DNA of 64,000 nt from Candidatus Competibacteraceae bacterium (GTDB taxonomy: Bacteria; Pseudomonadota; Gammaproteobacteria; Competibacterales; Competibacteraceae): assembly GCA_027492875.1 (NCBI GenBank), contig JAPUDV010000078.1, positions 665-64,664 on the forward strand, in the 5' to 3' direction. This document shows positions 3,209 to 42,388 of the stretch, piece by piece (the stretch's first letter is position 1; each line of letters opens with the position of its first letter). The translations under genes were made by a program, and so were the position numbers. The notes under the pieces are model-generated. The model searched no databases, was not told the origin of the DNA, and was given only the letters and a program-made list of their open reading frames with translations.

Positions 3209-5631
<2,423 letters not shown>

Positions 5632-5635
<4 letters not shown>

Positions 5636-7584
5636 GGCTCCAGCACCAACCGGAATCCCAGGTCGAATTTCCCGTATTGAGGGGAAGCGGGAAACCGATA
5701 GGCGAACCGCACCAGGCCCGGATAATCCGACCACGACCCGCCCCGCAACATCCGGCGCCCTCCCGCCGCAGCGTTCTGATCGGCGCACCGTGCCTCGCCG
5801 CCCGCGTAGGCGCTATCGTAATCGGAACAGGTCCATTCGGCGGCGTTACCCAGCATGTCGTGCAGACCGAACGCGTTGGCTTCGTACTTGCCCACCGGAG
5901 CAGCCACGGCCTGGCCATCGTCGCAAGGATAATTAGCCCAGTTGAATTGCAGGGCTTTCTTGGCGGTTGCATCGTAGATATTGGCGTAACGGCACGCCCG
6001 ATTCGGGTCTTCCCCCCAGTCGCGGGAAAGCGTCTTGCCGGCGCGCGCCGCATACTCCCATTCCGCCTCGGTCGGCAGGCGGATTCGCAGGCCGGTTTTC
6101 TCCGATAGCCAGCCGGCGTAGGTGGCCGCATCCTGCCACTTGACCCGCACTACCGGCTGCTCGGGCGCGTTCAGATCATGGGTATCGTAGCTACCACTGT
6201 CGTGATTGGCGTCAAAACGCCGGTACTGATTGTTGGTGACCTCAAATTTACCCATCCAGAAACCCTTGAGACAAACCTGATGCGGCACTTCGTTGGCGCT
6301 GCGATCCTTTTCGGTTTCCGGGCTGCCCATGCCGAAACAACCAGGCGGAACCCAGACAAACGCCATGTCGATCTTGGGCTCGATGTAGATTTGGCCGGAT
6401 CGCGGATTGGCCGGTGGCCCCGATTCGACGACCGGCGGCGGCGGTGGCTTGGAAGTTGAATTGCCCGGTGCCGGTGGCCCCGTCAGCCAATACGCGACCC
6501 CGCCACCCACCGCCGCCACGATCGTCAGAATTCCGATTCCCCAACGCCATCTCGCCCGTGGAGGATGCGCCGGCGGCTGTTTCGGATCCGGCTCGACGAT
6601 CGCCGGGCGGGGCTTCCCGCCGCTGCGATGCAAATCGGAACGCAACGGCAACTCCAGTTTGACCGTGCGCTCGCCGCTGTCTTCCGGCTGAGCCTCCAGC
6701 GCCACCCGCATTTGCTCGATCGATTGGAATCGCCTTTCTGGCCGAACCGCCATGGCCCGGTCGATCAGCCGCAGTAAAGCGGGGTTGTACCGCCCGGCCG
6801 CAGCTTCCTCCGCGGGACGCAGCGGATCGTCGAGCACGCGCGCCGGCGCCTCGATCGGCGCGGCGCCAGTTACGCAGTGATATAAAACCGCCCCCAGGGC
6901 GTAAATATCGGTCCACGGGCCGTAACCCTTTCCGTCGACCAGATATTGCTCGATCGGCGAGTAACCCGGCGAGAACACGCTGGTTACGCTCTTGCTGCGT
7001 CGGCCCAGCGCCTGACGGGCCGCGCCGAAGTCGATCAGGATCGTGCGGTTGTCCGAGCGGAGGTAAAGATTGGCGGGCTTGAGGTCGCGATGCAGGTAGC
7101 CCTGGTCGTGCACCGCCTTCAGGGCCGGCAACACATCGTCGGTCAAGCGGCGGATCTGCTCTTCCGACAGGGTCTTTTCCCGCTGCAGGAGCTGGCTGAG
7201 CGCTTCGCCGTCCTCGTAGTCCATCACGATATAGGCGGTGCCATTCTCCTCGAAGAAGTCGCGCACCCGCACCACGCCGGGATGGTTGACCTTGGCCAGG
7301 ATCCGGGCCTCGTTGAGGAACCGCTCCAGGCCCCAGGCGTAGCAGGCTTCCTCGCCGACCTCGGAGGTCGGCAGCGTCCCTTGGGTGTTGGCCAGGACGT
7401 TGATATCGTTGCGGTCCCGGTAGGACCATTCCACCGGGAAATATTCCTTAACCGCCGCCCGGGTTTGCAGCGCCTCGTGCACGGCCATGTAGGTGATTCC
7501 AAATCCACCCGCGCCCAGCACCGCTTCGACGCGATACTGATGCAGGCGATAACCGACGGGCAGTGTGTTGGATTTCTTGGTCAT
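5632..7584 (-). CDS. Hanks-type Ser/Thr kinase with TM helix and C-terminal FGE-sulfatase (SUMF1-like) domain
   Basis: LGAGGFGITY, AVKE, HRDLKPAN and IDFGAA intact; TM WGIGILTIVAAVGGGVAYW; LPTEAEWEYAARAG, NAFGLHDMLGNAAEW, RGGSW...GFRLV. Confidence 0.92.
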
Positions 7585-7686: not shown

Positions 7687-8610
7687 TTATTCGGACCCGC
7701 CGCTTTCCGCAGACGATTTTACCTGTCCCCGCCGCAAAGGCACACTGGATTCATGTTCCAGCAGACCAATAGCCTGCTCGTACTCCTGGGCTTGAACGTG
7801 CTGGCCGGTGTGCCGGACGATGGTTCGAGCCCGCCGGTAAAGCTCCAGCGCGGCGCGCGGATCGTCCTGTTCCTGGCGCACCCGCGCCAGCAGGGCCAGA
7901 TCGTGCGCCAGACCGGGCAGGTTTTCGGCTTCCCGATCCAGGTCGATGGCTTCCACGAGAGAGGCCTCGGCCTGGCGAATCTCACCAGCCCACAGCGCCA
8001 GGCTGGCCCGGTTGGCCAGCGTCGCCGCCAGCAACCGCTTTTCCCCGCTGAAACGCGCCAATGCCTCGGCCTCGTCCAAGAATCGCCGCGTTTCGCCCGA
8101 TTGCCCCAAGCCCTTGTAAGCCAACCCCAAACCGTTCAGCGCCGCCAGCATGGCGACATTGTCCCGCCGCTCGCGCCCCTCGTCCAGCGCGTGCTGAAAT
8201 TCCGTCCGCGCGGCCGCAAACCGGCCGCGCCGCAACTCGAGTTCCGCGAGACCCAGACGCGCCTGCGATTGGCTTGCCCGATCCGGCAGCGCCGCCGCTG
8301 CCCGCAGCGCCCCGCGCAAGCTCCGCTCCGCCAGCGGCCACTCGCCCAACGCCAGAGCGATCGCGCCCACATTCAGAGTCTGCGCCACGATCGCCGGACG
8401 GTCGTCGGCAATTTCGGCTCGGCGCAGGCTGTCCTGGAACCCCTGCAAGGCCTGCGGCAACTCGCCTCTCGCATAGTAGCGCAGCGCCCGTTCCTCACTG
8501 TGCTGGTACTGCGACTGCAACGGGGTCAGCGCCGGACCGCCGCAGGCCGCCAGTCCCGCCAACAGTCCGACCCCCAGCAACGCCTCGCCCCGGCCGCGTC
8601 TCAGCGCCAT
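7687..8610 (-). CDS. Tetratricopeptide-repeat lipoprotein
   Basis: Lipobox LAAC after a hydrophobic segment; repeated TPR-like helices (ALNGLGLAYKGLG, LANRASLAL, LAHDLALLARV). Confidence 0.8.
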   Translation of the reverse strand: MALRRGRGEALLGVGLLAGLAACGGPALTPLQSQYQHSEERALRYYARGELPQALQGFQDSLRRAEIADDRPAIVAQTLNVGAIALALGEWPLAERSLRGALRAAAALPDRASQSQARLGLAELELRRGRFAAARTEFQHALDEGRERRDNVAMLAALNGLGLAYKGLGQSGETRRFLDEAEALARFSGEKRLLAATLANRASLALWAGEIRQAEASLVEAIDLDREAENLPGLAHDLALLARVRQEQDDPRAALELYRRARTIVRHTGQHVQAQEYEQAIGLLEHESSVPLRRGQVKSSAESGGSE

Positions 8611-8648: not shown

Positions 8649-9764
8649 CTAGGGGGGTGGCGCGGCGGGTGTGGACCCTTCGATATCCCGGGGCGCCTCC
8701 AGCAGGCGCCGACCCGGTTCCACCGGACTCAGGGTTCGAAACAGCGCGCTGCGCTTGATCCCGCCGACCATGTCATCCATATCCTCGGCCACCAGCCGGC
8801 TTTTGTCGATCAATCCGGGCACCTGCCCGCTGGCCTCGGCCAACTTCGCCGTCGTCCGTTCGGTCTGTTGCAGGATCCGCTCGATCTGCTGGCCGTAAGC
8901 CGGCAGCCGGTCGGCCAGCTTCTCCAGTCCCGCCAGCACCGCTCGCAGTTTGTGCGCGCTCGCCACCATATCGCGGGAGAGCGGACTGTCGCTGTCGGTC
9001 ATGCCGCCGAGCACCCCCTGACCTTCGCGGATCCGCGCGCCGACCGCAGCCAAATCCGCGGCCGAGCGGTTCGCTTCCCGACTGACGGCCGTCAGTTCCC
9101 GCAGCAGAGGGCCCAGTTGCCCGCTCAGTTCGGCCGCATCGCGCAGGACGCCATCGATTCGTTGCAGGTAGCCGGACAGTCGGGTCGAAAATTCCTGTGT
9201 GACCCGGGCGAAAGCATCCAGTGTTCCCAGCAACCCGCCCTCGGGTTTCCTGAGTGCATCGGTGATGGCTCTGACGTTGGTCAGCACGGCGGAAACCTGG
9301 ACCAATTGCTCCTGGGCCTGCCGCAGCAACATGTCCAGATCGGGCGCACGCAGAAAAGGGATTTTTTCGCCATCCCGCAATACCGGCCGCGCGGGATCCC
9401 CCATGTTGATTTCGATGTGGGCGTTACCCAGCAGGTCGGTTTTGACCTGGGCGGACGAATCCCCGCGGATGCGCGGCTGGTATTCCTGATCGAGAATCAG
9501 TTCGATGCGAATCTGGTTGTAATCGGTGATCGTCAGATCGCGCACCTCGCCGACCTTCAGCCCCGCCAGCGTGATCGGAGTGGTTCTCTGGATATTCTTG
9601 ACGTTGTCGAGAACCCCGTGCAAACGGTAGGTCTGACTGAAAAACCCGAACTGGCGGTTGGTCATCCACAGCATGGCGAACAGCACGCTCAGCGTGGCCA
9701 GAACCAGCAATCCCACCGAACGCTGGTAGAATCGGTAGCGGGCGCTGATCAAGGTCTCAAGCAT
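8649..9764 (-). CDS. MlaD/MCE-family protein with long helical C-terminal region
   Basis: N-terminal TM; PITLAGLKVGEVRDL and DSSAQVKTDLLGNAHIEI MCE motifs; start overlaps the ATPase stop. Confidence 0.88.
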   Translation of the reverse strand: MLETLISARYRFYQRSVGLLVLATLSVLFAMLWMTNRQFGFFSQTYRLHGVLDNVKNIQRTTPITLAGLKVGEVRDLTITDYNQIRIELILDQEYQPRIRGDSSAQVKTDLLGNAHIEINMGDPARPVLRDGEKIPFLRAPDLDMLLRQAQEQLVQVSAVLTNVRAITDALRKPEGGLLGTLDAFARVTQEFSTRLSGYLQRIDGVLRDAAELSGQLGPLLRELTAVSREANRSAADLAAVGARIREGQGVLGGMTDSDSPLSRDMVASAHKLRAVLAGLEKLADRLPAYGQQIERILQQTERTTAKLAEASGQVPGLIDKSRLVAEDMDDMVGGIKRSALFRTLSPVEPGRRLLEAPRDIEGSTPAAPPP

Positions 9765-10494
9765 GATCGAAACGCGCGAAGCGTCTGACCAGGGCATCCG
9801 GATGCCCGGCGAGATCCCCGGCCCTGTCCGCCGCCAGCAAAGTCCCCTGGTCCATGACCAGCAGGCGCGACTCCGGACCTACCGGCAGCGCCCGAGGGCC
9901 GGCATCGACCATGATCGTCATCTGCATCGGCGCGACCACCTCTTCGAAAAACGCCCACACACCGTAGCCCGCCACCAGGGTTTCCTGCGGCAGATAAGCG
10001 CTGACCAACAGCAGCCCAGGCTTGATGACCAGCGCCCGCAGCAAGCCGATCCAGCTACTTTCCAGCGGCGACAGCTCGCTGGCCTGTCGCGCCAGAATCG
10101 CCGGCGACAACCGGCAGGATTCCACGAAAGCCGTCACATAACCCTCGACCTCGCCGTCCGGCGCCAAACGGTGGTAACGCACCAGCAGCGCCAGATTTTC
10201 AAACACGCTCCAGGCCGGCACCAGACCGGCATGCTCCAGCACCACCCCAATCCGGCCGCGCAGGCGGGCTCGGGCGCGCGGCCACATCCGCTCCACGGCC
10301 TGTCCGAACAGTTCGATGCGACCGGTTCGGGGCGCGGCCAGGCCGGCGATGGTACGGATCAACTCGCGCCGGCCCGAACCGACCGCGCCCACCAGCATCC
10401 AGGTCTCGCCCGCCATGGCCCGAAAATCGAAAGGACGCGGCGGCGGCGACAGGTCCAGCCCCAAACCGCGCAACCACACCCGCCCCTCAGCCAT
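9757..10494 (-). CDS. MlaF-like ABC ATP-binding subunit with degenerate catalytic motifs
   Basis: ABC-fold context (G.IELFG, RIGVVLE...L.P..SVFENL) between mlaE- and mlaD-like genes; Walker A GAVGSGRRE, signature LSPLE, Walker B LLLVSA. Confidence 0.8.
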   Translation of the reverse strand: MAEGRVWLRGLGLDLSPPPRPFDFRAMAGETWMLVGAVGSGRRELIRTIAGLAAPRTGRIELFGQAVERMWPRARARLRGRIGVVLEHAGLVPAWSVFENLALLVRYHRLAPDGEVEGYVTAFVESCRLSPAILARQASELSPLESSWIGLLRALVIKPGLLLVSAYLPQETLVAGYGVWAFFEEVVAPMQMTIMVDAGPRALPVGPESRLLVMDQGTLLAADRAGDLAGHPDALVRRFARFDHA

Positions 10495-11290
10495 AACGCA
10501 GCAGCGAAACCAGCAGGGTGATGATCAGGCAACCGATGAAGGACTGCGCGAACGCGCTGGGCAGCGCCCGGGGGATATCCACATAAGCCCGGACCTGAAA
10601 AGCGCGTTGGGTCTGCACCAGGACAATGTGGATGCCTTGCGCGACCACCATGCCGCCGGTCAGCACCAGCGATCCGTAGCTCAGCCCCGAAACGCAAACC
10701 CGGAAAAAAACCGACGGCGGGATGTTCTGATAGACGCTCAGCATGACCCCCGCTCCGACGGTCACTCCGACACTCAGCCAGAAGGTCAACACCAGCAGCG
10801 ACAGCACCACGCCGATCAGGCGGGGCAGCACGAAAAAACCATACGGGTTGATGCCCATCGCGGCCAAATGCTCGATGGCCTGATTCGCCTTGAGTTCGCC
10901 CAACTCGGCAGTGATGGCCGCGCCCGACAGCCCCGCCACGAACAGGCTCGCCAGAATGGGATCAAGCTGATGATACATCATGATATGCATGATGCGTCCC
11001 AGCAACCGGGGGTCGCGAATGCCGAACACGATCAGCGGCAAGGCGACCAGAGCGCCAATGATCAGGCCAACGACAGTGAAGATATACGCTCTTTGCACCG
11101 CCGTGAAATAGATCTGTTGCAAGGTATGCCCGAGCAGAAACCGCCCCTGTCCCCGCGTGATCAGACCGGCGCTGACCAGCACGATCACCAGGAAATCCAA
11201 CTCCTCCCGCAATCGCGCCAGGGGGCCTGTCACCAATGCGCCCGCACCGTCGACAATCCGCCAGAAATCAGCCCACACGGCGGCTTTCAT
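10487..11290 (-). CDS. MlaE-family ABC permease
   Basis: SGAAITAELGEL...AIEHLAAMGINPYGFFVLPRLIG; multiple TM helices. Confidence 0.88.
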   Translation of the reverse strand: MKAAVWADFWRIVDGAGALVTGPLARLREELDFLVIVLVSAGLITRGQGRFLLGHTLQQIYFTAVQRAYIFTVVGLIIGALVALPLIVFGIRDPRLLGRIMHIMMYHQLDPILASLFVAGLSGAAITAELGELKANQAIEHLAAMGINPYGFFVLPRLIGVVLSLLVLTFWLSVGVTVGAGVMLSVYQNIPPSVFFRVCVSGLSYGSLVLTGGMVVAQGIHIVLVQTQRAFQVRAYVDIPRALPSAFAQSFIGCLIITLLVSLLRYG

Positions 11291-11317: not shown

Positions 11318-14017
11318 TCAAGGCAGTTCCCGCACCAAACGAAACCCCAGGAAGTAATCCCGGAAATCGGGGTCGTTGCGATGCCGGTCGGCCGAACGCA
11401 CGTTGCGCGGCTCGTCGTTCCAGGACCCGCCGCGCACCACGAACTGGCGTTCCGCCGCGGGTTCCTCGCAACTTTGGAGAGGCGCCTGGGGATCCTCGCT
11501 GTAGAGCGAACAGGTCCATTCCAGCACGTTGCCGGCCATGTCGTGCAAGCCGAAGTCGTTGCTCCGATAGCTGCCGACCGGCGCCGTGTAGACTTCGCCA
11601 TCGCGACAATTCATCACCGTCCAGCCGACAAAAACCCGCCTGCCGTCCAAATCGGCGGCGTTGGCGTAGGCGCAGCCACGGTCGGGGTCGTCGCCCCAGT
11701 AACGGCTGGTTCTCGTCCCGGCGCGCGCCGCGTATTCCCACTCCGCCTCGGTGGGCAAGCGGTAGCGCTGGCCGGTCTGCTGGGACAGCCACCCAGCATA
11801 GGCCATGGCGTCCCGCCAGCTTACATTGATCACCGGACGCCGGCTGCGTCCCCAACTCTGATCGGGGGGCAACAGGCGCCCCGTCATCGTCGCGAAGCGG
11901 TCGTATTCATAAAACATCACCTCATATTTGCCGATGGCGAAGGGTTTCGCAATCCGCACCGGGTGCTGCGGCTCGTCGTTGTAACGACCCTTCTCACCGG
12001 CAGGGGATCCCATCAGGAATCCACCGGCCGGGATCACCACCATTTCTGGACCTTGCGAGCCATCGTTCAGCCGGTCCCGCATCACCGGGTTGGCCGGAGC
12101 CAGTCGGGCCAGCGCGGTCTCGGCCTCGGCCCGGTGGCGACAGGTCGCCGCGCAGCGATCCAGATAGTCCCAATACGCCTCGCGGGTGTTGGCGCGCTGG
12201 GCGGTGGCGAAGACGTTGGCATCCAGACGCCGGGCCTTGTCCGCACCTTCGGCTTCCGCCAACATTCGGGCCAGATCCGCCCGTTCGGGCGGGGAGGGCC
12301 GCATCGATTCGATCTTTCCGAACCATGTGCGGGCCTCGTCCAACTCCGACCGATCCAGGCTGGCCCGTACCCGCGCCGCCCAGACGAGCGCCACCCGCCG
12401 CCGTCCGGCCGCGATGAACGGATCGTCCGGCGTTAGCTTCGCCAGCGTATCCAGTTCGGCCAGGGCTTGCTCGCCCTGACCACCGCCGCTTTCCTGCTCC
12501 AGACCTTGCGCCAGCGTTTCGAACCTCGCCTTAAGTTCGTCGGCTTTCTGCCGGGTTTCCAGATCCAGGATGGCCTTTCGCGCTTCCTTTTCGTAGCCGC
12601 AGCGCGGGCAACGTTGCAGGTAAAGCCGGTAGGCCAGCAGGGTGTTCACCCGTCTGGCGGCTTCAAAAGCACGCAGGTCGGTGGCGCTTTCCGCCTCGCG
12701 CAAAGAAGCGGCCAGGTTAGTGGCCGGCGGCGATGTTACCGCTTCCCGAACGGTTTCGCCGGTGGCGACCCGCTCCGGCTGACCGGATTCGGGCGCTCTG
12801 TCCGGCCGCATGGTCAGCCAGAAAATCGCCAGGGCGGCGATCAAGCCTAAACCCGGCACCAGCATCCAGCGGGATCTCAGAAACGAACCCAGCCCCTGGC
12901 GCGCCACCACCGTCGGCTGCTGCGCCGCGTCCAGGGCGCCGATGAACTTGCCGGCTTCGGTCGGACACAGCTCGCTGGGATAGGCCAGACCCCGCCGCAG
13001 GACGCGCCAGGCGTCGTCCCCCAGCTCCGGCGGGCGCGGCACCATGTTGGGCGAATCCCCCTGGGCCTCATAGGCGCTCCGCCCGGTCAGCGCCTGATAA
13101 ACCAATAGCGCCAAGGCGTACACATCGCGGCGGAAGGCGATGCTGGCGGCGACCGATTCCACCGCGCCCTCGGCGACCATCTCCCCGGCCAACCTACCCG
13201 TGTTGAACAGGACGCCGTGCGGCTCCCGCGGTTCGGTCGCCAACCCAAACCCCAACAGTTTCATCTCCCCCTGGTTGGAGAAAAATATCATGTCGGCGTC
13301 GAGGTGCTGGTGGGGCAAGCGATGCTCCTGCCGGGCGTAATCCAGAGCGGCCGCCACCGGACCGAACCATTTCAGCACCGTTTCCAAAGGCAGACCGTTT
13401 TGCCCCTGCTCCCGCAGCAGTTGACCGAGCGTGTGCCCCTGTCGGTGATCGACGTACTCCATCTCGGCGAACGCCCAGCCATCGGCGCCGTGCCGCCAGC
13501 CCTCGGTGCGTGCGATGTTCGGATGCGCGAGTTTCGCAGCCTGTTCCACCCGGGTCCTAACTCTGGTCAGATAGGCGCGCAAGCCGATCAGATCTGCCCG
13601 CAGCGCCCGTTCGTCGCGTTCGGATTCACGCGGGCCGGACAGGGAGCCGGCCGGCAAAAAGATCTTGATGGCGCGAAAATCGCCGTCCGCGCCGTCGCCG
13701 CTCTTCGGTTCCGGCGTCGCGATGCGCGCCAGCCATATCCGCCCCCGACCGCTGAGATCATGCAACAACCGGACCCGTCGCTCGGCGGGTCCGATCATCA
13801 TCCCGGTTTCCAGGGTTTCCAAATCCCGCGGCTGCCGGTCGACCCCCGACTCGACGCCGACCGTCAGGCCACCTACCCCAGACAGAACCCCATCGGCGTG
13901 ACCCTCCGATGTCGCCTCCCGCAACAAGGCCTCTTGGCGGCGCGCCAGCTCGGCCTCGTCCAACCGGCCGGCGGCATATGCTTCCGCAAGTTCTTCAAGA
14001 CGCGTTTCAATGTTCAT
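11318..14017 (-). CDS. SHOCT + kinase-like (pseudokinase) + TM + helical repeats + FGE-sulfatase domain protein
   Basis: N-terminal LEELAEAYAAGRLDEAELARRQEALL (SHOCT-like); AIK, HPNI, EMEY; HQHLD and GFG in place of HRD and DFG; TM LVPGLGLIAALAIFWL; FGE motifs GPEMVVIPAGGFLMGS...RGGSW...GFRLV. Confidence 0.85.
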   Translation of the reverse strand: MNIETRLEELAEAYAAGRLDEAELARRQEALLREATSEGHADGVLSGVGGLTVGVESGVDRQPRDLETLETGMMIGPAERRVRLLHDLSGRGRIWLARIATPEPKSGDGADGDFRAIKIFLPAGSLSGPRESERDERALRADLIGLRAYLTRVRTRVEQAAKLAHPNIARTEGWRHGADGWAFAEMEYVDHRQGHTLGQLLREQGQNGLPLETVLKWFGPVAAALDYARQEHRLPHQHLDADMIFFSNQGEMKLLGFGLATEPREPHGVLFNTGRLAGEMVAEGAVESVAASIAFRRDVYALALLVYQALTGRSAYEAQGDSPNMVPRPPELGDDAWRVLRRGLAYPSELCPTEAGKFIGALDAAQQPTVVARQGLGSFLRSRWMLVPGLGLIAALAIFWLTMRPDRAPESGQPERVATGETVREAVTSPPATNLAASLREAESATDLRAFEAARRVNTLLAYRLYLQRCPRCGYEKEARKAILDLETRQKADELKARFETLAQGLEQESGGGQGEQALAELDTLAKLTPDDPFIAAGRRRVALVWAARVRASLDRSELDEARTWFGKIESMRPSPPERADLARMLAEAEGADKARRLDANVFATAQRANTREAYWDYLDRCAATCRHRAEAETALARLAPANPVMRDRLNDGSQGPEMVVIPAGGFLMGSPAGEKGRYNDEPQHPVRIAKPFAIGKYEVMFYEYDRFATMTGRLLPPDQSWGRSRRPVINVSWRDAMAYAGWLSQQTGQRYRLPTEAEWEYAARAGTRTSRYWGDDPDRGCAYANAADLDGRRVFVGWTVMNCRDGEVYTAPVGSYRSNDFGLHDMAGNVLEWTCSLYSEDPQAPLQSCEEPAAERQFVVRGGSWNDEPRNVRSADRHRNDPDFRDYFLGFRLVRELP

Positions 14018-14188
14018 AACATACTGATTTGCCGTGCAATTCTGAAGATTTGTTTGAATTGGAAACCATAAACTGCATTATGGCCTAGTTTAGCAGAACG
14101 ATGAAATCGCCTGATGCTCTCTCAAAAGAGATTCCATGGAGTTCCATTGGGCACCGGTTGTAACATACCGAGGGTGGTGTCCCTTTCC

Positions 14189-15274
14189 ATGACCGACTCT
14201 AAACTACAGATGCGCACGCACACCGACCCTTCCATCATGAATCCGGCCGACGCCCACGATCAGCTGCCGTATACCATGGCTCTTCCACGTCATCTCGATT
14301 CCGGAGATCCCTCGCCGGAACTCGCCTGCAAAGACGAGGTTTCGCTGGAAATCGCCGTGCGCTCGCTGCGTTCGCCCACCGGCCAGGGCCGCCGCGAAAA
14401 TCAGGATAATTTTCTGACCGTGGACGGTCTGGGCCAAGCCCGCCTGCTGTGGCGCGAACAGGAAACCCGGTTGCGGCTGGCCGACTGGCCGGCCGGACAC
14501 CGGCGACTGGCCGTGCTCGACGGCATGGGTGGTCATAGCCACGGTCGGGAAGCGGCCGAAAAAGCTATCGAAGGGTTGCTCGGCCTGCCGGCGACCGCCG
14601 GTCTCGCCCGACTCTCCGAAACCCTGAATGCCCTGCACCAGCAGCTTTATCAGGAATTTCACAAGGCAGGGCTGGAAACCGGTTGTACCCTGGTACTGCT
14701 GGAAATCCCCCCTCAAGGTCCCGCCATGCTGTTTCACGTCGGCGATTCGCGGTTGTACGCCATCGACGAACATCGGGTCCAATGTTTGACCGTGGATCAC
14801 GTTCCGGCCACTCACTTGGCGATGCTCGGTCTGCTGAACGGCGCCCAATGGCTCCAGCAGGTCCACATTCAAACCAGTTCCCAAATCAGCCAGGCGTTCA
14901 TTCTCGGCAGCACCCTGGGCGTGCCGCATCTTTACGCGGAGAGTATCGACCCTGAGTTGTACGAACTGCACGAAGGCAATTTGCCTCTCTTTCTAAGAGG
15001 GCTGGGCGACCGCCGCGCCCTGACGCTGGAACCGGGTTGGGTTTACCTGCTCGCCAGCGACGGTCTCTGGCACCTGACCAGCCCGCAGGCCTTCATCCAG
15101 CGTTGGCCGGCGCTGCTGGCGCAACCGCAACGCCCCTTGGAAGAACTGATCGACGAGTTACTGAACATTTTGGCCGAAACCATCCACCAGCAACGCAGCC
15201 TGCCCGACGATAACTGCACGGTTATCCTGGTCCGCAAACCCCTTCAGACCGCGTTTCGCCAAGCTAGCCCCTAA
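14189..15274 (+). CDS. PP2C-family Ser/Thr phosphatase
   Basis: ENQD, AVLDGMGGH, HVGDSRLY, LASDGLW and DDNCT metal-binding motifs all intact; start codon uncertain (14114/14189/14237). Confidence 0.9.
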   Translation: MTDSKLQMRTHTDPSIMNPADAHDQLPYTMALPRHLDSGDPSPELACKDEVSLEIAVRSLRSPTGQGRRENQDNFLTVDGLGQARLLWREQETRLRLADWPAGHRRLAVLDGMGGHSHGREAAEKAIEGLLGLPATAGLARLSETLNALHQQLYQEFHKAGLETGCTLVLLEIPPQGPAMLFHVGDSRLYAIDEHRVQCLTVDHVPATHLAMLGLLNGAQWLQQVHIQTSSQISQAFILGSTLGVPHLYAESIDPELYELHEGNLPLFLRGLGDRRALTLEPGWVYLLASDGLWHLTSPQAFIQRWPALLAQPQRPLEELIDELLNILAETIHQQRSLPDDNCTVILVRKPLQTAFRQASP

Positions 15275-22183: not shown

Positions 22184-22879
22184 ATGAACGAACTCGATCT
22201 GTCCCGACAAACCCCGTTCGGCGCGGATTTCAGCGTTGCCGAATTCGCCGACAACCCGGAGCCGCGCTGCCCCTGCGTGTTGCTGCTGGACAATTCCTGG
22301 TCCATGAGCGGCCACCCGATCACCGAACTCAACGAAGGACTGGCCACTTTCAAGGAAGAACTGCTGGCCGACAGCCTGGCGGCCAAGCGGGTCGAAATCG
22401 CCATCGTCAGCTTCGGCCCGGTCCAGGTGGTCAACGAATTCCAGACCGCCGAGCACTTCACGCCCCCGCAACTGGCGGCGCGCAAGGACACGCCCATGGG
22501 CCTGGCGATCATTCAGGGGCTGGAACTGCTGGACCAGCGCAAAGCGCTGTACCGCGAACACGGTATCCCCTTCTTCCGTCCCTGGGTATTCCTGATCACC
22601 GACGGCAGCCCCACCGATGACTGGAAAGCCGCCGCCAACGAAGTGCGCAAGGGCGAGGAAAATCGCGCCTTCGCCTTCTTTGCGGTCGGGGTCGAGGGCG
22701 CCAACCTGGATATCCTGCAACAAATTTCCCCGCGCCAGCCGCTGCGATTGAAAGGGTTACGGTTCCGCGAACTGTTCCAATGGCTGTCCAACTCGATGCG
22801 GTCGGTGTCGCGCTCGGTGCCGGGCGCCGAAGTACCGTTGAGCAACCCCACCGCGCCTGACGGCTGGGCCTCGGTGTGA
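22184..22879 (+). CDS. yegL: TerY-like vWA domain protein
   Basis: [58 protein letters not shown]. Confidence 0.9.
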
Positions 22880-23841
22880 ACGAGCCGGACGGCTGGCGCC
22901 ACGTCCGCGCCAGCGTGGCGGGCGTGGCGCACCTGGCCGTTGGCGCCGGCTGTCAGGACGCCTGCGCGGCCCAATTACTGTCCGGGCCGGAATCGAGCCC
23001 CGTGCTGGTGCTGGCCGCCGCCGATGGCGCCGGCAGCGCCGCCCTCTCGGGCGCCGGCGCGGAGCTGGCCTGCCAGACCCTGCTGGCCGAATGCGCGGCC
23101 TGGCTGGCGGACGCCCCCGCCGAAGACTGGACCCCGGCTGCGGCGGAGAAGATGCTCCAGCAGGTTCGAACCGCGCTGGGGCGCCTCGCGGCGGACACGG
23201 GACAACCGATACGGGAATTCGCCTGCACCTTGCTGGGCGCGGTGGTGGCCGCCGACCGTGCGCTGTTCCTGCAAATCGGCGACGGCGCCATCGTGATCGG
23301 CGCTCCGAACCAAGGTTACCGGCCGGTGTTCTGGCCACAGACCGGCGAATACGCCAACGAAACCTACTTTGTCACCGACATCGCCGCCGCCACCCATCTT
23401 GAATGCGCGATCCTGAGCGAACCCGTCGCCGAAATCGCGCTGCTGACCGATGGCCTGCAACGGCTGGCGCTGCACTATCAAACCCGCCAGGCCCACGAAC
23501 CGTTCTTCCGTCCGCTGTTCCAGCGCTTGCGCGCACATCCGGAACCTGGCTGTCCGGCGATTCTGGCGACCGCGCTGGAACGCCTGCTCGCCGGCCCGGC
23601 GATCAACCAGCGCACCCACGACGACAAAACCCTGATCCTGGCCACCCGGCTGGCGGCGGAATCCGCCGAAGACACCGGCGGCGCGGGCGTTCCTCCCCTC
23701 CCCCCCTCATCCTGCCCGAGCGGCGACGAGGACGCGACCACCGACGATCCGGCGGGGATGTCTTCCCTCCCGGCGGACGAGGGTGAGGAGTCGGCCCCCG
23801 AATCCGAGCTTCGGGAAGAATCCGGTGACGCGGCTGCATAG
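22876..23841 (+). CDS. yegK: PP2C-like phosphatase of the TerY-P triad
   Basis: [44 protein letters not shown]; GTGA overlap with the vWA gene. Confidence 0.88.
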
Positions 23842-25825
23842 CGGCGCCGGTCACCCCGTCGAGCTGGGCAAGACGCTGGGGCGCGGCGGCGAAGGCGTGG
23901 TCCATGACATCGCCGGCCGGCCCGGCTTTGTCGCCAAGATCTACCACCAGGCGGTCGGCGCCGACAAAGCGCTCAAGCTGGAAGGGATGGCCCGGCAAGC
24001 CCACCCCAGTCTGCTGGAAATCGCCGCTTGGCCGGTGGACGTGCTGCGCGCCCATCCGACCGGTCCAGTGCACGGTTTCGTCATGCCCAAGGTCAGCGGC
24101 TACCAGGAGATCCACAGCCTGTACGGACCGGCGCACCGCAAGCGGGCCTTCCCGCAGGCCGACTGGTCCTTTCTGATCCATGCCGCCCGCAATCTGGCCA
24201 GTGCGTTCGAGACCATCCACGCTCGCGGCCACGTCATCGGCGACGTCAATCCTGGCAACGTGGTGGTTTCCGCTCAGGCGCTGGTCAAACTGATCGATTG
24301 CGACTCCTTCCAGATCGACACCGGCAATCGACTGTTTCCCTGCGATGTCGGCGTGCCGCAGTTCACCGCGCCGGAGTTGCAAGGCCGCCCGTTTCACGGA
24401 CTGCGGCGCGCTCCGGATCACGATGCCTTCGGCCTGGCCCTGCTGTGCTTCCACCTGCTGTTCATGGGACGCCACCCCTTCGCCGGCCGCTATCGGGGCA
24501 AGGGCGACATGCCGATCGAGCGCGCCATCAAGGAATGCCGGTTCGCCTTCGGCCAGCACGCCGCCGCCCGCTCGATGGAGCCGCCGCCGCACACCTTGCC
24601 GCTCGCCGCCCTGCCGCGTCCGGTCGCGCATCTGTTCGAGCGTGCCTTCGCCCCCCCCAGTGCGGCCCAATCGCGGCCCTCCGCCCGCGAATGGCTGTTG
24701 GCGCTGGAACAACTCAACGGCGAGCTGCGCGCCTGCCGGCGCAGCGCCGCGCACAAATACCCGCAACGGTTGCCAGCCTGTCCGTGGTGCGCGCTGGAGC
24801 AGGCCAGCGGAACCCTGTTTTTCATCCTGCCGGCCCAGACTCTGGCGGCCGGCCCCACCGCTGGCCCCACCGATTTCGAACTGGAACCGGTCTGGAATCG
24901 CATCCTGGCGCTGGAACCGCCGCCGGACGAGAGTCCGCCGGCGCCGGTGGCGGCGCAACTGGCGCCGATCACCCCCACCCCATTGCCGGAACCGCTGCGT
25001 CGGGTCCGCCGCCACAACGCGATCAAGGCGGTGGTCGTCGCCGGTATCGTCCTGGCCGCGATAGTGATCCGCCCGCGACTGAGCTGGCTATGGTTGCCGC
25101 TGGCCACCGTCGGCTGGTCGCTATCGCGGAACAGCGCGGCGCGGCGGGAACGCCAGCGCCGCCGGTTGGCGCTGCTGGCGGCCCGCCGGGAGCTGACGGA
25201 ACTGCGGACAGCCTGGCAACGCCACGCCACCGCACAGCCGTTCGCCGGCAAGCTGCAAGCACTGCGCGAACTGCGCGAGCGCCACCGTACCCTGGGAGCC
25301 GAATTCCGGCGCAGCTTGCGGCGGCTGGAAACCGGCCAACGCCAGCTTCAATTGCAGGCGTTTTTGGAAGGTCACTTCGTCGATGCCGCCCGGATCGCCG
25401 GCCTGCGCGCCACCGACCGGTTGGCGCTGGAATCCTACGGCATCGAAACCGCCGCCGACGTGACGCCCGCCGCAATCCAGGCGGTGCCCGGCTTCGGCCA
25501 GCGCTTCGGCCAGCAGCGATACGCGGCGCTGCTGGCCTGGCGTCAGGCCCTGGAGCGCCAGTTCCGTTACGATCCCGGCAAGGGCGCCAATCCGGCCGCC
25601 GTCGCCAACCTGCGCCAGCACTACGCCCAACAGCGGCAACAGATCGAACGGGAACTGCTGGCGGGTCCCGAGGAACTGGCTAAAATCAAGACGGACATCC
25701 TCAAGCAACGCGCCCAGCTCAATATCGCCCTGATCCGCCAGGCGATGCGAGAGGCGCAGGCGCAAGCCGACCTGCGGGTTTTCCATCCTGATATCGGGTT
25801 TTTACGGCGGCGCAACGGCGGCTAG
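23825..25825 (+). CDS. yegI: Ser/Thr kinase with TM segments and helix-hairpin-helix C-terminus (TerY-P triad)
   Basis: LGRGGEGVV, VAKIY, IGDVNPGN, LIDCDSFQI, GVPQFTAPELQ; TM pair; GIETAADV...IQAVPGFG HhH. Confidence 0.88.
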   Translation: MTRLHSGAGHPVELGKTLGRGGEGVVHDIAGRPGFVAKIYHQAVGADKALKLEGMARQAHPSLLEIAAWPVDVLRAHPTGPVHGFVMPKVSGYQEIHSLYGPAHRKRAFPQADWSFLIHAARNLASAFETIHARGHVIGDVNPGNVVVSAQALVKLIDCDSFQIDTGNRLFPCDVGVPQFTAPELQGRPFHGLRRAPDHDAFGLALLCFHLLFMGRHPFAGRYRGKGDMPIERAIKECRFAFGQHAAARSMEPPPHTLPLAALPRPVAHLFERAFAPPSAAQSRPSAREWLLALEQLNGELRACRRSAAHKYPQRLPACPWCALEQASGTLFFILPAQTLAAGPTAGPTDFELEPVWNRILALEPPPDESPPAPVAAQLAPITPTPLPEPLRRVRRHNAIKAVVVAGIVLAAIVIRPRLSWLWLPLATVGWSLSRNSAARRERQRRRLALLAARRELTELRTAWQRHATAQPFAGKLQALRELRERHRTLGAEFRRSLRRLETGQRQLQLQAFLEGHFVDAARIAGLRATDRLALESYGIETAADVTPAAIQAVPGFGQRFGQQRYAALLAWRQALERQFRYDPGKGANPAAVANLRQHYAQQRQQIERELLAGPEELAKIKTDILKQRAQLNIALIRQAMREAQAQADLRVFHPDIGFLRRRNGG

Positions 25826-25849: not shown

Positions 25850-26464
25850 ATGGGCAGACGCAACGAACACACGCGCGCGGAACTCCGGCAGATTGCCCTG
25901 GAGGCCGCCGAGGAACTGGTGGCCGCGCAGGGGCTGGCCGGCTTGAGCACCCGCAAAGTGGCGGCCCGCATCGGCTACACGGTCGGCAGTCTGTACATGG
26001 TCTTTCGAAACCTCGACGATCTGATCGTCCAGATGAACGAGCGGACCCTGGACGCCCTGCACGCGCGGTTGGCCACCGCCACCGGACAGCCGCCGACCGC
26101 CGCCATTCGGGCGCTGGCCCAGAGCTACATCGCCTTCGCCCTGAGCGAACCCAACCGCTGGCTGGCGATTTACCAGCACCGCTTGCCGGACGGGGAAACC
26201 GTGCCGGATTTCTTCAGCGAAAAAGTGGCTCGGATGTTCGAGCTGGTGCAGCGCCAGCTCATGCTGCTGTGCCCCCAACGGCCGCCGGACGACAGCGCTC
26301 TGGCCGCTCGCGCGCTGTGGAGCGGAATTCACGGCGTCTGCATTCTGGGCCTGGACCAGAAACTGGAAGCCGTCGGCGGTCGTTCGATCGAGGAGGTGGC
26401 CGGCTCGCTGCTGGATCACTATCTGACTGGCTTCGCCCTGCCTCAGCGGCTCACCCCTTCGTGA
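25850..26464 (+). CDS. TetR/AcrR-family regulator with WHG-type C-terminal domain
   Basis: GLAGLSTRKVAARIGYTVGSLYMVFRNLDDL HTH; ALWSGIHGV. Confidence 0.9.
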   Translation: MGRRNEHTRAELRQIALEAAEELVAAQGLAGLSTRKVAARIGYTVGSLYMVFRNLDDLIVQMNERTLDALHARLATATGQPPTAAIRALAQSYIAFALSEPNRWLAIYQHRLPDGETVPDFFSEKVARMFELVQRQLMLLCPQRPPDDSALAARALWSGIHGVCILGLDQKLEAVGGRSIEEVAGSLLDHYLTGFALPQRLTPS

Positions 26465-33723: not shown

Positions 33724-34404
33724 TCAGCGCTGCCGCACCACCTGATACGGACGGGCCACGTAGGTGACCGGCGCGCTCCAGATATGCACCAGCCGGCTGA
33801 AGGGGAATACCAGGAACACGGTCAAGCCCAGGAAAATATGCAGCTTGAACAGGAAGCCCATGGGGGTGATGGCGGCCACCGCTTCCGCCGGATCGAACGT
33901 CACGACATTCCGCGCCCACTGCATGAGCAGCAGCATATTGCCGCCATCCAGATGCATCAGCGACAGCGGGATGGTCAGCAGACCGAGGGTTAGCTGCATA
34001 TATAAGAGCAGCAGGATAAAAATATCCATTCGGGTACTGGTCGCCCGCACCCGGGGATCGTTCAGCCGCCGCTGCACCAGCATCGTCAGCCCGGCGAAGC
34101 ACATCAACCCGGCGACGCTACCGGCGACGATGGCCAGGATTTGTTTGGCGCCCGCAGAGACGCCCAAGGCGTGGAACACTTCCGGCGGGGTGAGCAAACC
34201 GATGAAATGGCCGGCGAACAGAAGCAGGATGCCGACATGAAACAGATTGCTGGCCCAACGCATGTTCTTGTTGCTGATCATCTGGCTGGAATGCGCCTTC
34301 CAAGTGAACTGGTCGCGGTCGAAGCGCGCCAAGCTGCCGAGCAGGAAGACTGCGCCGGCCAGATAAGGATAAACGCCAAATAACAGGGTATTCAGGTAAC
34401 TCAT
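33724..34404 (-). CDS. narI: Respiratory nitrate reductase gamma subunit (cytochrome b)
   Basis: FGVYPY, RFDRDQFTWKAHSSQ, FHVGILLLFAGH, FPFSRLVHIWS. Confidence 0.97.
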   Translation of the reverse strand: MSYLNTLLFGVYPYLAGAVFLLGSLARFDRDQFTWKAHSSQMISNKNMRWASNLFHVGILLLFAGHFIGLLTPPEVFHALGVSAGAKQILAIVAGSVAGLMCFAGLTMLVQRRLNDPRVRATSTRMDIFILLLLYMQLTLGLLTIPLSLMHLDGGNMLLLMQWARNVVTFDPAEAVAAITPMGFLFKLHIFLGLTVFLVFPFSRLVHIWSAPVTYVARPYQVVRQR

Positions 34405-34436
34405 GATCTTTTACCTCAAGTGTTTGCCGAGGGCGA

Positions 34437-34475
34437 CCCTCACCCCCAGCCCCTCTCCCGCAAGCGGGAGAGGGG
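34437..34475 (+). repeat. Dispersed hairpin/G4 repeat, copy 1 (narJ-narI intergenic)
   Basis: CCCTCACCCCCAGCCCCTCTCCCGCAAGCGGGAGAGGGG. Confidence 0.85.
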
Positions 34476-34479
34476 CGTG

Positions 34480-35196
34480 TTACAGGGGACGAGCCGTTTG
34501 TGGAGTTGAACCAGGTGGGGGCATCCAGCGTACCGGTTGGGTCGTACCCTGGCCCGTTTGGCGAGCGCCACAACCCTCCCGATTCGCCAGGAATGTCACC
34601 ACCTCCTCTTCCCAAATCTTGTCCATGTTGACGATCGCTTGATCGGGACCCTCGGTCGCGGCTTGCCGGCGAATCTCCTCGATGTCCGCCGGGTCGCCGA
34701 CCAGCGCGGCGAGGGCATCGAACACGACGTGATAATCGCTGCCGCGCTCCGTCAGCCGGGCGCCAAGCAAGGCCATGACGTGCATGGCATCGGCCAACAT
34801 GTCCAGCGCCTCTCCCGCCGGACGCTGCGCCAGATATTCCAGAAACAGTGGAATGTAGTCGGGCAGTTCGCGGGCGTTCAGTTCGAAACCGTGCCGGTGG
34901 TAAACCTTCAGCAGGTCGACCATGGCCTGACCGCGATCCCGCGATTCGCCGTGGATATGCTCGAACAGATGCAGCGATAACGCCCGGCCCCGGTCGAAGA
35001 GCCGAACATACCGTTCCTGCCACTCGATCGGATCGGTCCGCCGCATCTGGTTCATCATCGCCAACAACGCCTGCTGCTCGCGTTCCGGCAACAAATTTTC
35101 CTGGACGAGAACTTCCGCCATCTCCCCCAACGCCGCCTGCATCTCCGGTTGTGGGTAGCACAGCAGGGCGGACAGGACTTTCAGGGTTTTCATCAT
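34480..35196 (-). CDS. narJ: Nitrate reductase molybdenum cofactor assembly chaperone
   Basis: SALLCYP, YVRLFDRGRALSLHLFEHIHGESRDRGQAMVDL, ELPDYIPLFLEYL. Confidence 0.97.
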   Translation of the reverse strand: MMKTLKVLSALLCYPQPEMQAALGEMAEVLVQENLLPEREQQALLAMMNQMRRTDPIEWQERYVRLFDRGRALSLHLFEHIHGESRDRGQAMVDLLKVYHRHGFELNARELPDYIPLFLEYLAQRPAGEALDMLADAMHVMALLGARLTERGSDYHVVFDALAALVGDPADIEEIRRQAATEGPDQAIVNMDKIWEEEVVTFLANREGCGARQTGQGTTQPVRWMPPPGSTPQTARPL

Positions 35197-35229
35197 TCCA
35201 CCTCGTGTATGTGGCGCCCGATACCAGCG

Positions 35230-35264
35230 CCCTCACCCCAACCCCTCTCCCGGAGGGAGAGGGG
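35230..35264 (+). repeat. Dispersed hairpin/G4 repeat, copy 2 (narH-narJ intergenic)
   Basis: CCCTCACCCCAACCCCTCTCCCGGAGGGAGAGGGG. Confidence 0.85.
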
Positions 35265-35278
35265 CGCTTGCCCTCGAT

Positions 35279-36832
35279 TCAGGCTTTGGTCGGCGGCTCC
35301 ACGCGAATCGGAACCGCCCGGCGCGTCGTCACTTTCTTGCCACCAAACAGATTGGTTTTATCCGTACCCGGCGAGCAGCCGTTGCCGAAGCTGAAGCCGC
35401 AACCGCCACGCTCACCGAAGGCGTCATAGGTGGCGCTGGCATATTCGCGGTGGCTGGTCGGAATAACGAAGCGATCTTCGTAATTGGCAATCGCCAGATA
35501 GCGGTACATCGATTCGACCTGATCGATGCGCAGACCGACCGCTTTCAGCACGTCGTCGCGGATTTCGCCGTCCACCGTCTTGCCGCGCATGTAGGCGCGC
35601 ATGGCCAGCATCCGCTCCAGCGCCAGCTTGACCGGCTTTTCGTCGCCGGCGGTCAGCAGGTTGGCCAGATACTTCAGCGGAATCCGCAAGGAACCGACAT
35701 CGGGGATGATGCCGTTCATGCCGATCTGACCGGACTCGGCGCGGGACTGGATCGGCGACAGCGCCGGCACATACCAGACCATCGGCAGGGTGCGGTACTC
35801 GGGATGCAGCGGGAAGGCGATCTTCCACTCGATCGCCATCTTGTAGATGGGTGACTCCTGAGCCGCTTCCAGCCACGGCTCGGGAATGCCGGCCTTGCGC
35901 GCCTCGGTCTGCACCGTCGGGCTGAACGGATCGAGGAACATGTCGAGCTGGGCCTGATACAAACTCTGCTCGTCGGCGACGCTGGCGGCCTGCTCGATTT
36001 TATCGGCGTCGTACAGCAATACGCCCAGATAGCGGATGCGGCCCACGCAGGTTTCCGAGCAAACGGTCGGCTGGCCGACCTCGATGCGCGGGTAGCAGAG
36101 GATGCACTTTTCGGATTTGCCGGTATTCCAGTTGTAGTAAATCTTCTTGTACGGGCAGCCGGAAACGCACATCCGCCAACCCCGGCACTTGTCCTGGTCG
36201 ATCAGAACGATGCCGTCCTCCTCGCGCTTGTAGATCGCGCCCGACGGGCAGGACGCGACGCAGGCCGGGTTCAGGCAATGCTCGCACAGGCGCGGCAGGT
36301 ACATCATGAAGGTGTTTTCGAACTCGCCGTACATCTCCTTCTGCACGTTCTCGAAGTTGGTGTCCTTGGAACGCTTGGCGAATTCGGTGCCGAGGATTTC
36401 CTCCCAGTTCGGCCCCCACTGGATTTTTTGCATCCGCTCGCCGCTGATCGCCGAGCGCGGCCGGGCGGTGGGCATGGCTTTCGACTCCGGCGCATTCTGC
36501 AAATGTGCGTAGTCGTAATCCCACGGTTCGTAGTAGTCGTCGATGGCCGGCAGGTCGGGGTTGGCGAAGATATTCGCCAGAATCCGCCACTTGCCGCCCT
36601 GCTTCGGCTCGATTTTGCCGTCCCGGCGGCGTTTCCAGCCGCCGTTCCACTTCTGTTGGTTCTCCCATTCCTTGGGATAACCGATGCCGGGCTTGGTCTC
36701 GACGTTGTTGAACCAGGCGTATTCCATACCGTCGCGGCTGGTCCAGACGTTCTTGCAAGTCACCGAACAGGTGTGGCAGCCAATGCACTTGTCCAGATTC
36801 AGGACCATGGCGATTTGTGCGCGTACTTTCAT
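35279..36832 (-). CDS. narH: Respiratory nitrate reductase beta subunit
   Basis: MKVRAQIAMVLNLDKCIGCHTCSVTCK, CEHCLNPACVASCP, CRGWRMCVSGCPY, CILCYPR. Confidence 0.98.
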   Translation of the reverse strand: MKVRAQIAMVLNLDKCIGCHTCSVTCKNVWTSRDGMEYAWFNNVETKPGIGYPKEWENQQKWNGGWKRRRDGKIEPKQGGKWRILANIFANPDLPAIDDYYEPWDYDYAHLQNAPESKAMPTARPRSAISGERMQKIQWGPNWEEILGTEFAKRSKDTNFENVQKEMYGEFENTFMMYLPRLCEHCLNPACVASCPSGAIYKREEDGIVLIDQDKCRGWRMCVSGCPYKKIYYNWNTGKSEKCILCYPRIEVGQPTVCSETCVGRIRYLGVLLYDADKIEQAASVADEQSLYQAQLDMFLDPFSPTVQTEARKAGIPEPWLEAAQESPIYKMAIEWKIAFPLHPEYRTLPMVWYVPALSPIQSRAESGQIGMNGIIPDVGSLRIPLKYLANLLTAGDEKPVKLALERMLAMRAYMRGKTVDGEIRDDVLKAVGLRIDQVESMYRYLAIANYEDRFVIPTSHREYASATYDAFGERGGCGFSFGNGCSPGTDKTNLFGGKKVTTRRAVPIRVEPPTKA

Positions 36833-36833
36833 G

Positions 36834-40592: not shown

Positions 40593-40644
40593 GTTAAATG
40601 ACCTCGCTTTTTTAGGGAGAGGAGGTCTGCCTTTGCAGGATCGG

Positions 40645-40682: not shown

Positions 40683-40709
40683 AGTCAACGGTTATTGGAA
40701 CCAGGCCGC

Positions 40710-42326: not shown

Positions 42327-42388
42327 GATGATGAGCCTCTATAATGATAACCATTTATGAAATATGATTTTTATCGGCGTCTTTGTTT

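Follow-up and report, generated by a model that had tools for sequence, protein, structure and literature searches.

A candidate receptor pseudokinase encoded in conserved synteny with an intact receptor kinase in Competibacteraceae

A stretch of 64,000 nucleotides (nt) from a Candidatus Competibacteraceae bacterium (contig JAPUDV010000078.1), called the window below, encodes two membrane proteins in which a Hanks-type kinase domain is joined to an FGE-fold domain. One of them, of 899 amino acids (aa), has a degenerate kinase domain and is the subject of this analysis. The other, of 650 aa, is an intact receptor kinase encoded downstream in the same gene cluster. Both open reading frames (ORFs) lie on the minus strand, where a first-pass annotation of the sequence had placed them. 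The features of the two genes are as follows.

11318 to 14017, minus strand: pseudokinase receptor gene, an ORF of 899 aa with a SHOCT-like hairpin, a pseudokinase domain, a transmembrane helix, an alpha-helical module, and an FGE-fold domain
13901 to 14017, minus strand: N-terminal SHOCT-like helical hairpin, aa 1 to 39 (model helices at 3 to 15 and 21 to 39; weak Pfam matches)
12902 to 13822, minus strand: degenerate Hanks-type kinase domain, aa 66 to 372 (alignments; AlphaFold2 core with predicted local distance difference test score [pLDDT] of >90; Foldseek)
12809 to 12865, minus strand: single transmembrane helix, aa 385 to 403 (Kyte-Doolittle maximum of 2.12 in a 19-residue window)
12104 to 12724, minus strand: predicted periplasmic all-alpha module, aa ~432 to 638 (nine helices, pLDDT of ~90)
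11330 to 12052, minus strand: FGE-sulfatase-fold domain without the catalytic Cys pair, aa 656 to 896 (Pfam, E = 2.6e-54)
5632 to 7584, minus strand: partner gene, a canonical Ser/Thr kinase-transmembrane-FGE receptor of 650 aa (Pkinase, 132 bits)

Pfam detects a Pkinase and an FGE-sulfatase domain in both proteins, the kinase match of the 899-aa protein being barely above the cut-off (32.0 bits for a cut-off of 31.7). Each protein has one strongly hydrophobic segment, located between these two domains (aa 385 to 403 in the 899-aa protein, aa 349 to 367 in the 650-aa protein). Given this single segment, both are predicted to hold the kinase domain inside and the FGE domain outside, in agreement with the shared topology that had been annotated. 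The cytoplasmic part of the 899-aa protein was modeled with AlphaFold2 from an alignment of 28 sequences (mean pLDDT of 80.6; predicted template modeling score of 0.73; kinase core of >90). The model revealed a complete bilobal kinase fold with a long αC helix (aa 136 to 161). The activation segment (aa 260 to 290) is present at low confidence, and confidence is also low between the hairpin and the kinase domain (aa 40 to 65), a stretch that is probably disordered. The best matches of the modeled domain in the PDB, as identified by Foldseek, are bacterial Hanks kinases, namely, Mycobacterium tuberculosis PknI (E = 1.6e-12) followed by PknB and PknA, and HMMER matches its sequence to PknF (E = 1.6e-13). 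Profile and structure model thus both point to a Hanks-type kinase fold.

The N terminus had been described as a SHOCT domain acting as an oligomerization module. The helical hairpin is there, and the aligned segment of active relatives scores 19 to 28 bits for SHOCT (at least 27 bits in two of them), but the window protein itself stays below the Pfam thresholds, both for SHOCT (PF09851, 11.9 bits, E = 0.2; gathering threshold of 27 bits) and for the SHOCT-like DUF1707 (19.8 bits, E = 8e-4; threshold of 27.6 bits). Its homology to SHOCT appears to hold only by transitivity, via the active relatives. The oligomerization role finds no support, the sole published test having been negative (PMC3581485).

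A word-indexed search retrieved about 110 full-length orthologues (40 to 84% identity), beyond which the scores drop sharply. Those that carry names all come from Competibacteraceae metagenome bins, and the ORF is intact in 109 orthologues, which share 44 to 84% identity with the window protein. Full clusters were also observed in bins labeled Phycisphaerales and Synechococcaceae (L016 and L048); they are probably mis-binned Competibacteraceae contigs, because of their 55 to 65% identity and identical synteny.

To follow the catalytic residues, 109 orthologues, 9 intermediate relatives, and 18 active relatives were aligned to one profile. The HMMER alignment to PknB and PknF places HQH (aa 236 to 238, nt 13304 to 13312) under HRD and GFG (aa 256 to 258, nt 13244 to 13252) under DFG, as had been read from the sequence, and both replacements are conserved. 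The His of HRD is kept (H236, 101 of 109 orthologues), the Arg is changed to Q237 (103 of 109) and the catalytic Asp to H238 (100 of 109). Further along, the catalytic-loop Lys has become D240 (99 of 109) and the Asn is T, A, or M243, the loop of the window protein reading HQHLDADM versus HRDLKPxN. The DFG Asp is present in none of the orthologues, with G256 in 96 and Ser in 12 of them. The αC Glu position is occupied by R156 (107 of 109); 16 of the 18 active relatives carry Glu there, in the context K-R-E-A-x-R-A. E158 was tried as the αC Glu and was ruled out by the alignment to PknB, PknF, and the active relatives, which assigns the position to R156. In addition, the subdomain XI Arg, involved in the canonical APE-Arg salt bridge, is changed to C351. 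The list of lost motifs given earlier was therefore right as far as it went and incomplete, since R156, D240, T/A/M243, and C351 had been missed.

Other positions are retained. The β3 Lys of AIK (aa 116 to 118), already noted as kept, is found in 106 of 109 orthologues (K118) within predicted strand 114 to 120, where it has no Glu partner because the αC position is R156. The glycine loop SGRGRIW had been called reduced. Mapped on GFGGMS of PknB, it has lost its first two glycines (D87 and S89, the latter being Gly in 28 of 109), but the third one, G92, is kept in 68 of 109, and W95 is a lineage trait that active relatives also show. The residues of the adenine pocket and the catalytic spine (I/V94, A116, and F245) match those of the active relatives, the regulatory spine is preserved (H236, F257, and D298), the αF Asp D298 is present in all 109 orthologues, and the Gly of DFG is kept as well.

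Judged from these alignments, the residues for phosphotransfer and Mg binding (αC Glu, HRD Asp, catalytic Lys, Asn, and DFG Asp) are lost, and canonical phosphotransfer by the 899-aa protein is very unlikely. The conservation of the degenerate states over 109 orthologues exceeds chance by far. With an adenine pocket that looks intact and substituted positions that hardly vary among the orthologues, the protein may bind a nucleotide or an anion independently of Mg.

The partner kinase was annotated as having all its motifs, and none of its catalytic residues or activation-loop Ser/Thr varies across 38 of 38 species. SHOCT is absent from it, the Gly-rich loop reads LGAGGFG, and the protein belongs to a very large proteobacterial Ser/Thr kinase (STK) family with many different ectodomains. 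The identity between the two proteins is 26% in the kinase domain and 46% in the FGE domain, and all three modules of the pseudokinase are nearer to a separate SHOCT-kinase-FGE lineage (FGE domains 57 to 66% identical) than to its neighbor. Hence, a recent tandem duplication is out as the source of the pair. The term "paralogue" was too strong, and "active paralogue" fits only loosely, as a statement of shared architecture.

Gene context was read in 57 loci from species-representative genomes. An intact kinase-transmembrane-FGE gene was found downstream on the same strand in 47 of the 47 loci with sequence long enough to show it (the remaining 10 run into a contig end), which is the co-occurrence to be expected of the annotated pairing. 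Because both genes share one cluster in every informative Competibacteraceae locus, the pseudokinase and the neighboring kinase probably signal together. A PEGA/CsgG-like gene follows the kinase in every locus reaching that far, and a PP2C phosphatase gene is located divergently upstream in 53 of 57 loci. Two sister lineages (L019 and L029), which include Ca. Contendobacter odensis Run_B_J11, truly lack the divergent PP2C gene, as seen in the upstream 10 kb. No FHA-domain or other phospho-reader gene was found among the cluster genes. In the window, the other genes of the cluster are as follows.

14114 to 15274, plus strand: PP2C-type Ser/Thr phosphatase, divergent, start codon uncertain (Pfam SpoIIE/PP2C_2; NCBIfam Stp1, E = 3e-15)
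10487 to 11290, minus strand: MlaE-like permease, first gene of the Mla-like block (Pfam MlaE, E = 6.5e-29)
9757 to 10494, minus strand: degenerate ABC nucleotide-binding subunit, a putative pseudo-ATPase (motif losses across 27 orthologues)
8649 to 9797, minus strand: MlaD/MCE-domain protein (Pfam MlaD, E = 1.3e-13)
7687 to 8610, minus strand: TPR protein with a lipoprotein-type N terminus (LAAC, hydrophobic; Pfam TPR_12, E = 1.4e-21)
3209 to 5635, minus strand: PEGA-repeat/CsgG-like secreted protein, 808 aa from the ATG (Pfam PEGA, E = 8.6e-29; CsgG, E = 4.6e-6)

From the pseudokinase gene onward, consecutive genes are separated by a 27-nt gap, an 8-nt overlap, a 41-nt overlap, a 38-nt gap, a 102-nt gap, and an ATGA overlap, a spacing that fits one seven-gene operon. 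In the last of these, the ATG of the PEGA/CsgG-like gene overlaps the stop codon of the kinase gene (positions 5632 to 5635, minus strand), suggesting that the two are translationally coupled. This ATG is the most likely start, rather than the upstream GTG of the mechanically called ORF (5788), and the protein contains about eight PEGA-like repeats. An anti-phage defense function of the cluster was considered and rejected: the matches to MADS6 and PglW-type families fall well short of their cut-offs and are explained by the generic kinase domain alone.

The four-gene block of MlaE, ABC subunit, MlaD, and TPR lipoprotein lies between the pseudokinase and the kinase in roughly half of the loci, the window among them. 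Its ABC subunit has lost the motifs of the family. The Walker A Lys is changed to Arg in 27 of 27 orthologues and the Q-loop Gln to Glu, the signature reads LSPLE and not LSGGQ, and both the acidic residues of Walker B and the His of the H-loop are missing; these replacements hold in 25 to 27 of the 27 orthologues. By these motifs, the subunit is a conserved pseudo-ATPase and not a competent MlaF-type ATPase, so that, with the pseudokinase, two dead nucleotide enzymes are encoded in one cluster. On a rough tree of the pseudokinase, the distribution of the block is patchy, and two loci without it retain short remnants between the pseudokinase and the kinase (43 aa of MlaE and 50 to 54 aa of the TPR gene; L015:12918-13232 and L041:12703-12852), which look like deletion scars. 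Patchiness and remnants together suggest that the block was repeatedly lost rather than repeatedly inserted.

The two receptors differ in how their domains are constrained. Median identities to the window proteins were computed over the 33 loci that carry all domains. For the pseudokinase, they were 60% in the cytoplasmic domain, 57% in the helical linker, and 77.5% in the FGE domain; for the partner kinase, they were 82.5% in the cytoplasmic domain and 75.5% in the FGE domain. The cytoplasmic domain of the pseudokinase evolves about twice as fast as that of the active kinase. The pseudokinase has thus shed catalytic constraint and yet kept its sensor under a pressure equal to that on the sensor of the kinase, a combination that is expected of a nonenzymatic co-receptor.

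The sensor in question combines the helical module with the FGE-fold domain. AlphaFold2 gave confident helices for the periplasmic half and a low-confidence FGE part with the shallow alignment used, so that the FGE identity rests on sequence matches. PF03781 is detected at E = 2.6e-54 in the pseudokinase and E = 5.4e-51 in the partner kinase, and the best PDB sequence matches of the pseudokinase domain are PvdO (E = 4.4e-37), then PorK/GldK (PorK, E = 2e-24) and true FGEs (1e-24 to 1e-19). We take the catalytic Cys pair of true FGE/SUMF1 to sit just after the GGS[FYW] motif. No Cys is found in RGGSWNDEPRNVRSADRHRNDPDFRDYFLGFRL, nor in the equivalent stretch of the partner kinase (RGGSW...GFRLV), which bears out the annotated absence of the pair from both domains, and the C-terminal segment resembles PorK, CalU17, and PvdO rather than FGE. 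Orthology to PvdO, EgtB, or GldK was rejected, all three being far under the cut-off; the PvdO equivalog NF051459, for instance, scores 162.6 bits with the pseudokinase and 105.4 bits with the partner kinase for a cut-off of 500 bits. Also rejected was a diversity-generating retroelement (DGR) acting on the FGE domain, as no reverse transcriptase is encoded in the window and the C-terminal region shows conservation instead of hypervariability. FGE-fold domains without FGE chemistry serve as ligand binders (PMC7159879, PMC10907252). A catalytic role of the ectodomain is possible, since its nearest solved relative, PvdO, is named an enzyme by NCBIfam.

The helical module carries two invariant Cys pairs, CPRC (aa 470 to 473) and CAATC (aa 622 to 626), at positions 12599 to 12610 and 12140 to 12154 (minus strand), each within a repeated motif A-Y-x-x-Y-L-x-R-C...C. 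They could form disulfides or be a redox- or metal-sensing site. A fold search with this module returned only weak TPR/BamD-like matches, none with E of <0.001.

The origin of the pseudokinase can be followed through its relatives. An exhaustive profile search of 1.84 billion representatives identified 52 clusters (E ≤ 1e-30) that fill the score gap below the orthologues and form a graded series, from active kinases to the Competibacteraceae family at the most degenerate end. The active members are SHOCT-kinase-transmembrane proteins with FGE, Sel1, Lcl_C, or PEGA-FGE ectodomains and all catalytic residues intact. A second group comprises pseudokinases of ~900 aa that share the helical linker and whose FGE domain is 62 to 66% identical to that of the window protein. 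They have lost the αC Glu, the HRD Asp (HRH, HRN, HRT, or HHN), and the subdomain XI Arg, and mostly keep the catalytic Lys, the Asn, and the DFG Asp. Tandem pseudokinase-pseudokinase versions of the same lineage make up a third group; one such polypeptide, with two consecutive pseudokinase domains between the SHOCT and the transmembrane-linker-FGE part, is encoded at L067:10001-13711 (P0241), and P0243 and P0244 are of this type as well. These tandem domains hint that the domain works in pairs. The series indicates that the pseudokinase descends from a separate SHOCT-kinase-FGE lineage by stepwise decay, the αC Glu, HRD Asp, and subdomain XI Arg apparently being lost first and the catalytic Lys, Asn, and DFG Asp later.

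Our preferred interpretation, to which we assign a probability of about 0.5, is that a receptor-type pseudokinase without catalytic activity, the 899-aa protein, acts as a nonenzymatic partner of the intact receptor kinase of the cluster. Each FGE-fold ectodomain would bind a ligand of the periplasm or the envelope. Within a hetero-oligomeric receptor, the partner kinase would be controlled allosterically by the pseudokinase domain, whose conformation would be either fixed and active-like or switchable; we infer hetero-oligomerization and allosteric control from the back-to-back dimers of PknB/MviN and from eukaryotic pairs. All phosphorylation would be done by the partner kinase, and the PP2C phosphatase would reset the system. 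An input or output connected with the cell envelope is suggested by the PEGA/CsgG-like protein and by the Mla-like block, whose ATPase is dead.

Several observations weigh against this interpretation. The two closest outgroup pseudokinases with readable context (L066 and L067) have no adjacent kinase or PP2C gene, implying that the pseudokinase state is older than the pairing and evidently does not need a partner encoded in cis to function. No ancestral homodimer interface can be assumed either, because the two kinase domains trace back to separate STK lineages. Finally, HQH, D240, D242, and R156 are themselves nearly invariant, beyond the needs of a purely passive scaffold.

The near invariance of the substituted residues (H238 in 100, D240 in 99, R156 in 107, and Q237 in 103 of 109 orthologues) is what would be expected if the active site had been repurposed rather than left to drift. 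A remodeled pocket comprising K118, R156, R91/R93, H236, H238, D240, and D242 would then serve for Mg-free binding of a nucleotide or a different anionic ligand, or for noncanonical catalysis of the kind known from SelO and SidJ, making the protein a second cytoplasmic input or an enzyme itself. The adenine-pocket and spine residues shared with active relatives and the outgroup members working without an adjacent kinase agree with this, but the motif set is shared by no known noncanonical kinase-fold enzyme, the structures most similar to the model are those of ordinary Hanks kinases, and the cytoplasmic domain changes at about double the rate of its active counterpart. We regard such a repurposing as unlikely. 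Quite unlikely, too, is the wider proposal that the repurposed pocket and the dead ABC ATPase make up a trans-envelope signaling machine of two nucleotide-binding, nonhydrolyzing modules that couples metabolic state to an envelope signal. Alternatively, the pseudokinase could be a substrate or scaffold of the kinase, as MviN is: the kinase would phosphorylate its linker, activation segment, or juxtamembrane region, the phospho-form would recruit or release downstream proteins, and PP2C would reverse the modification, with no allosteric regulation of the kinase. There is a precedent in PknB, which phosphorylates the MviN pseudokinase and thereby recruits FhaA (PMC12599244). Low-confidence, probably flexible segments (aa 40 to 65 and 260 to 290), conserved Ser/Thr positions (T247, S268, S314, T333, and S348), and the PP2C gene conserved alongside are consistent with such a role. 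However, the cluster has no FHA-domain or other phospho-reader gene, and S268 is Gly in the window protein itself; C351, which replaces the Arg of the APE-Arg salt bridge, is silent on a substrate role. This alternative is possible, if doubtful.

It could also be that the two proteins are separate receptors, for example, with different ligands and outputs, linked only by a shared envelope-related regulon. Their FGE domains are just 46% identical, their kinase domains differ in ancestry, and four other genes stand between them in half of the lineages. Nevertheless, order and orientation are fully conserved over ~47 species-level genomes despite repeated loss of the block, and a protein with neither catalytic output nor another output domain needs a partner for signaling, so that we consider independent sensors improbable. 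The least probable explanation is a functionless pseudogene in the making. The loss of the catalytic motifs and the faster evolution of the cytoplasmic domain would agree with decay, but the ORF is intact in 109 orthologues with many invariant positions, the FGE domain is 77.5% identical across the family, and the pattern of losses is fixed, not random. These conservation data effectively refute it.

How does the pseudokinase compare with described systems? Seven families of bacterial Ser/Thr pseudokinases have been cataloged (ActPs1 to ActPs3, GLW, CP1, DYD, and DLHK), in all of which some or all members have lost the VAIK Lys; GLW has that motif in place of HRD, CP1 is fused to COG3899, and ActPs3 has a deletion in the activation loop (bioRxiv 10.1101/2025.01.12.632604; PMC12599244). 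Like them, the Competibacteraceae family combines a Hanks-type fold with degraded catalytic motifs that are conserved as a family. In contrast to them, it keeps the Lys (106 of 109), has HQH and not GLW, retains the activation segment, and has no COG3899; none of the seven shows HQH/GFG, a SHOCT-like N terminus, or an FGE-fold ectodomain. By these family descriptions, the Competibacteraceae pseudokinases appear to fit none of the seven. They come almost wholly from metagenome bins, outside the RefSeq and UniProt sets behind the atlas. The pseudokinase of M. tuberculosis MviN forms back-to-back dimers, as active bacterial STKs do, and acts with PknB and FhaA (PMC12599244). MviN is likewise a membrane-anchored bacterial pseudokinase working with an active Hanks kinase, but it is fused to a lipid II flippase, bulky aromatic residues prevent it from binding ATP, and its gene does not neighbor that of its kinase. 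Unlike MviN, the 899-aa protein is a putative receptor that carries a sensor domain of its own, and its gene keeps strict synteny with that of the presumed kinase.

The kinase-transmembrane-FGE layout itself is that of proteobacterial STKs with a C-terminal FGE domain ("Proteo1"; Chlamydia trachomatis Pkn1), and the N-terminal SHOCT-kinase-FGE architecture was already listed in PMC3581485. The partner kinase is typical of the canonical FGE STKs, and the active SHOCT-kinase-transmembrane-FGE proteins are the evident ancestors of the pseudokinase. The canonical proteins keep GxGxxG, Lys, Glu, HRD, Asn, and DFG, of which the pseudokinase has lost all but the Lys. The ectodomain shares with PvdO, PorK/GldK, and DGR variable proteins an FGE/C-type-lectin fold without the Cys pair, used for binding (PMC7159879, PMC10907252), but it is not a PvdO orthologue, the window has no DGR, and its C-terminal region is conserved.

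Kinase/pseudokinase pairs are known in eukaryotes, such as HER3-HER2/EGFR, STRADalpha-LKB1, and JAK JH2-JH1. In these pairs, too, a dead kinase-fold partner with spine residues, possibly binding a nucleotide, stands beside a live kinase, and receptor topology is found on both sides. There is, however, no homology past the kinase fold, the bacterial order is reversed (kinase N-terminal, sensor C-terminal), and the pairing in Competibacteraceae is known from genes. According to recent reviews, there is hardly any experimental work on bacterial Ser/Thr pseudokinases, MviN being the one well-understood case and not a receptor, and we found no account in the literature of a receptor pseudokinase from bacteria whose gene is strictly syntenic with that of an active receptor kinase. 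The pair would offer just this, together with a sensor belonging to the pseudokinase itself and, nearly always, a phosphatase gene in the same synteny, and it would follow the same logic as the eukaryotic receptor pairs with an independent origin. Moreover, the living intermediates record a stepwise route from kinase to pseudokinase, suited to studying the order in which a kinase is converted into an allosteric or scaffolding module. The system may also bear on envelope or metabolic regulation in the glycogen-accumulating Competibacteraceae, rivals of phosphate-accumulating bacteria in wastewater treatment.

Two further loci of the window are worth recording. A triad of VWA, PP2C, and atypical kinase genes is located at 22184 to 25825 (plus strand), followed by a TetR gene at 25850 to 26464. 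The kinase of the triad reads GRGGEG...K...IGDVNPGN...DCD and scores 25 bits for Pkinase, and the triad is kept near the cluster in three relatives (L001, L003, and L005). It resembles the YegL/PphC/YegI triad of Escherichia coli. An ordinary respiratory nitrate reductase locus, unrelated to the pseudokinase, spans 33724 to 45079 (minus strand) and 45391 to 47914 (plus strand) and includes narGHJI, two MFS (NarK-like) genes, one of them an apparent fusion of 896 aa, and a NarX/NarL-type two-component pair.

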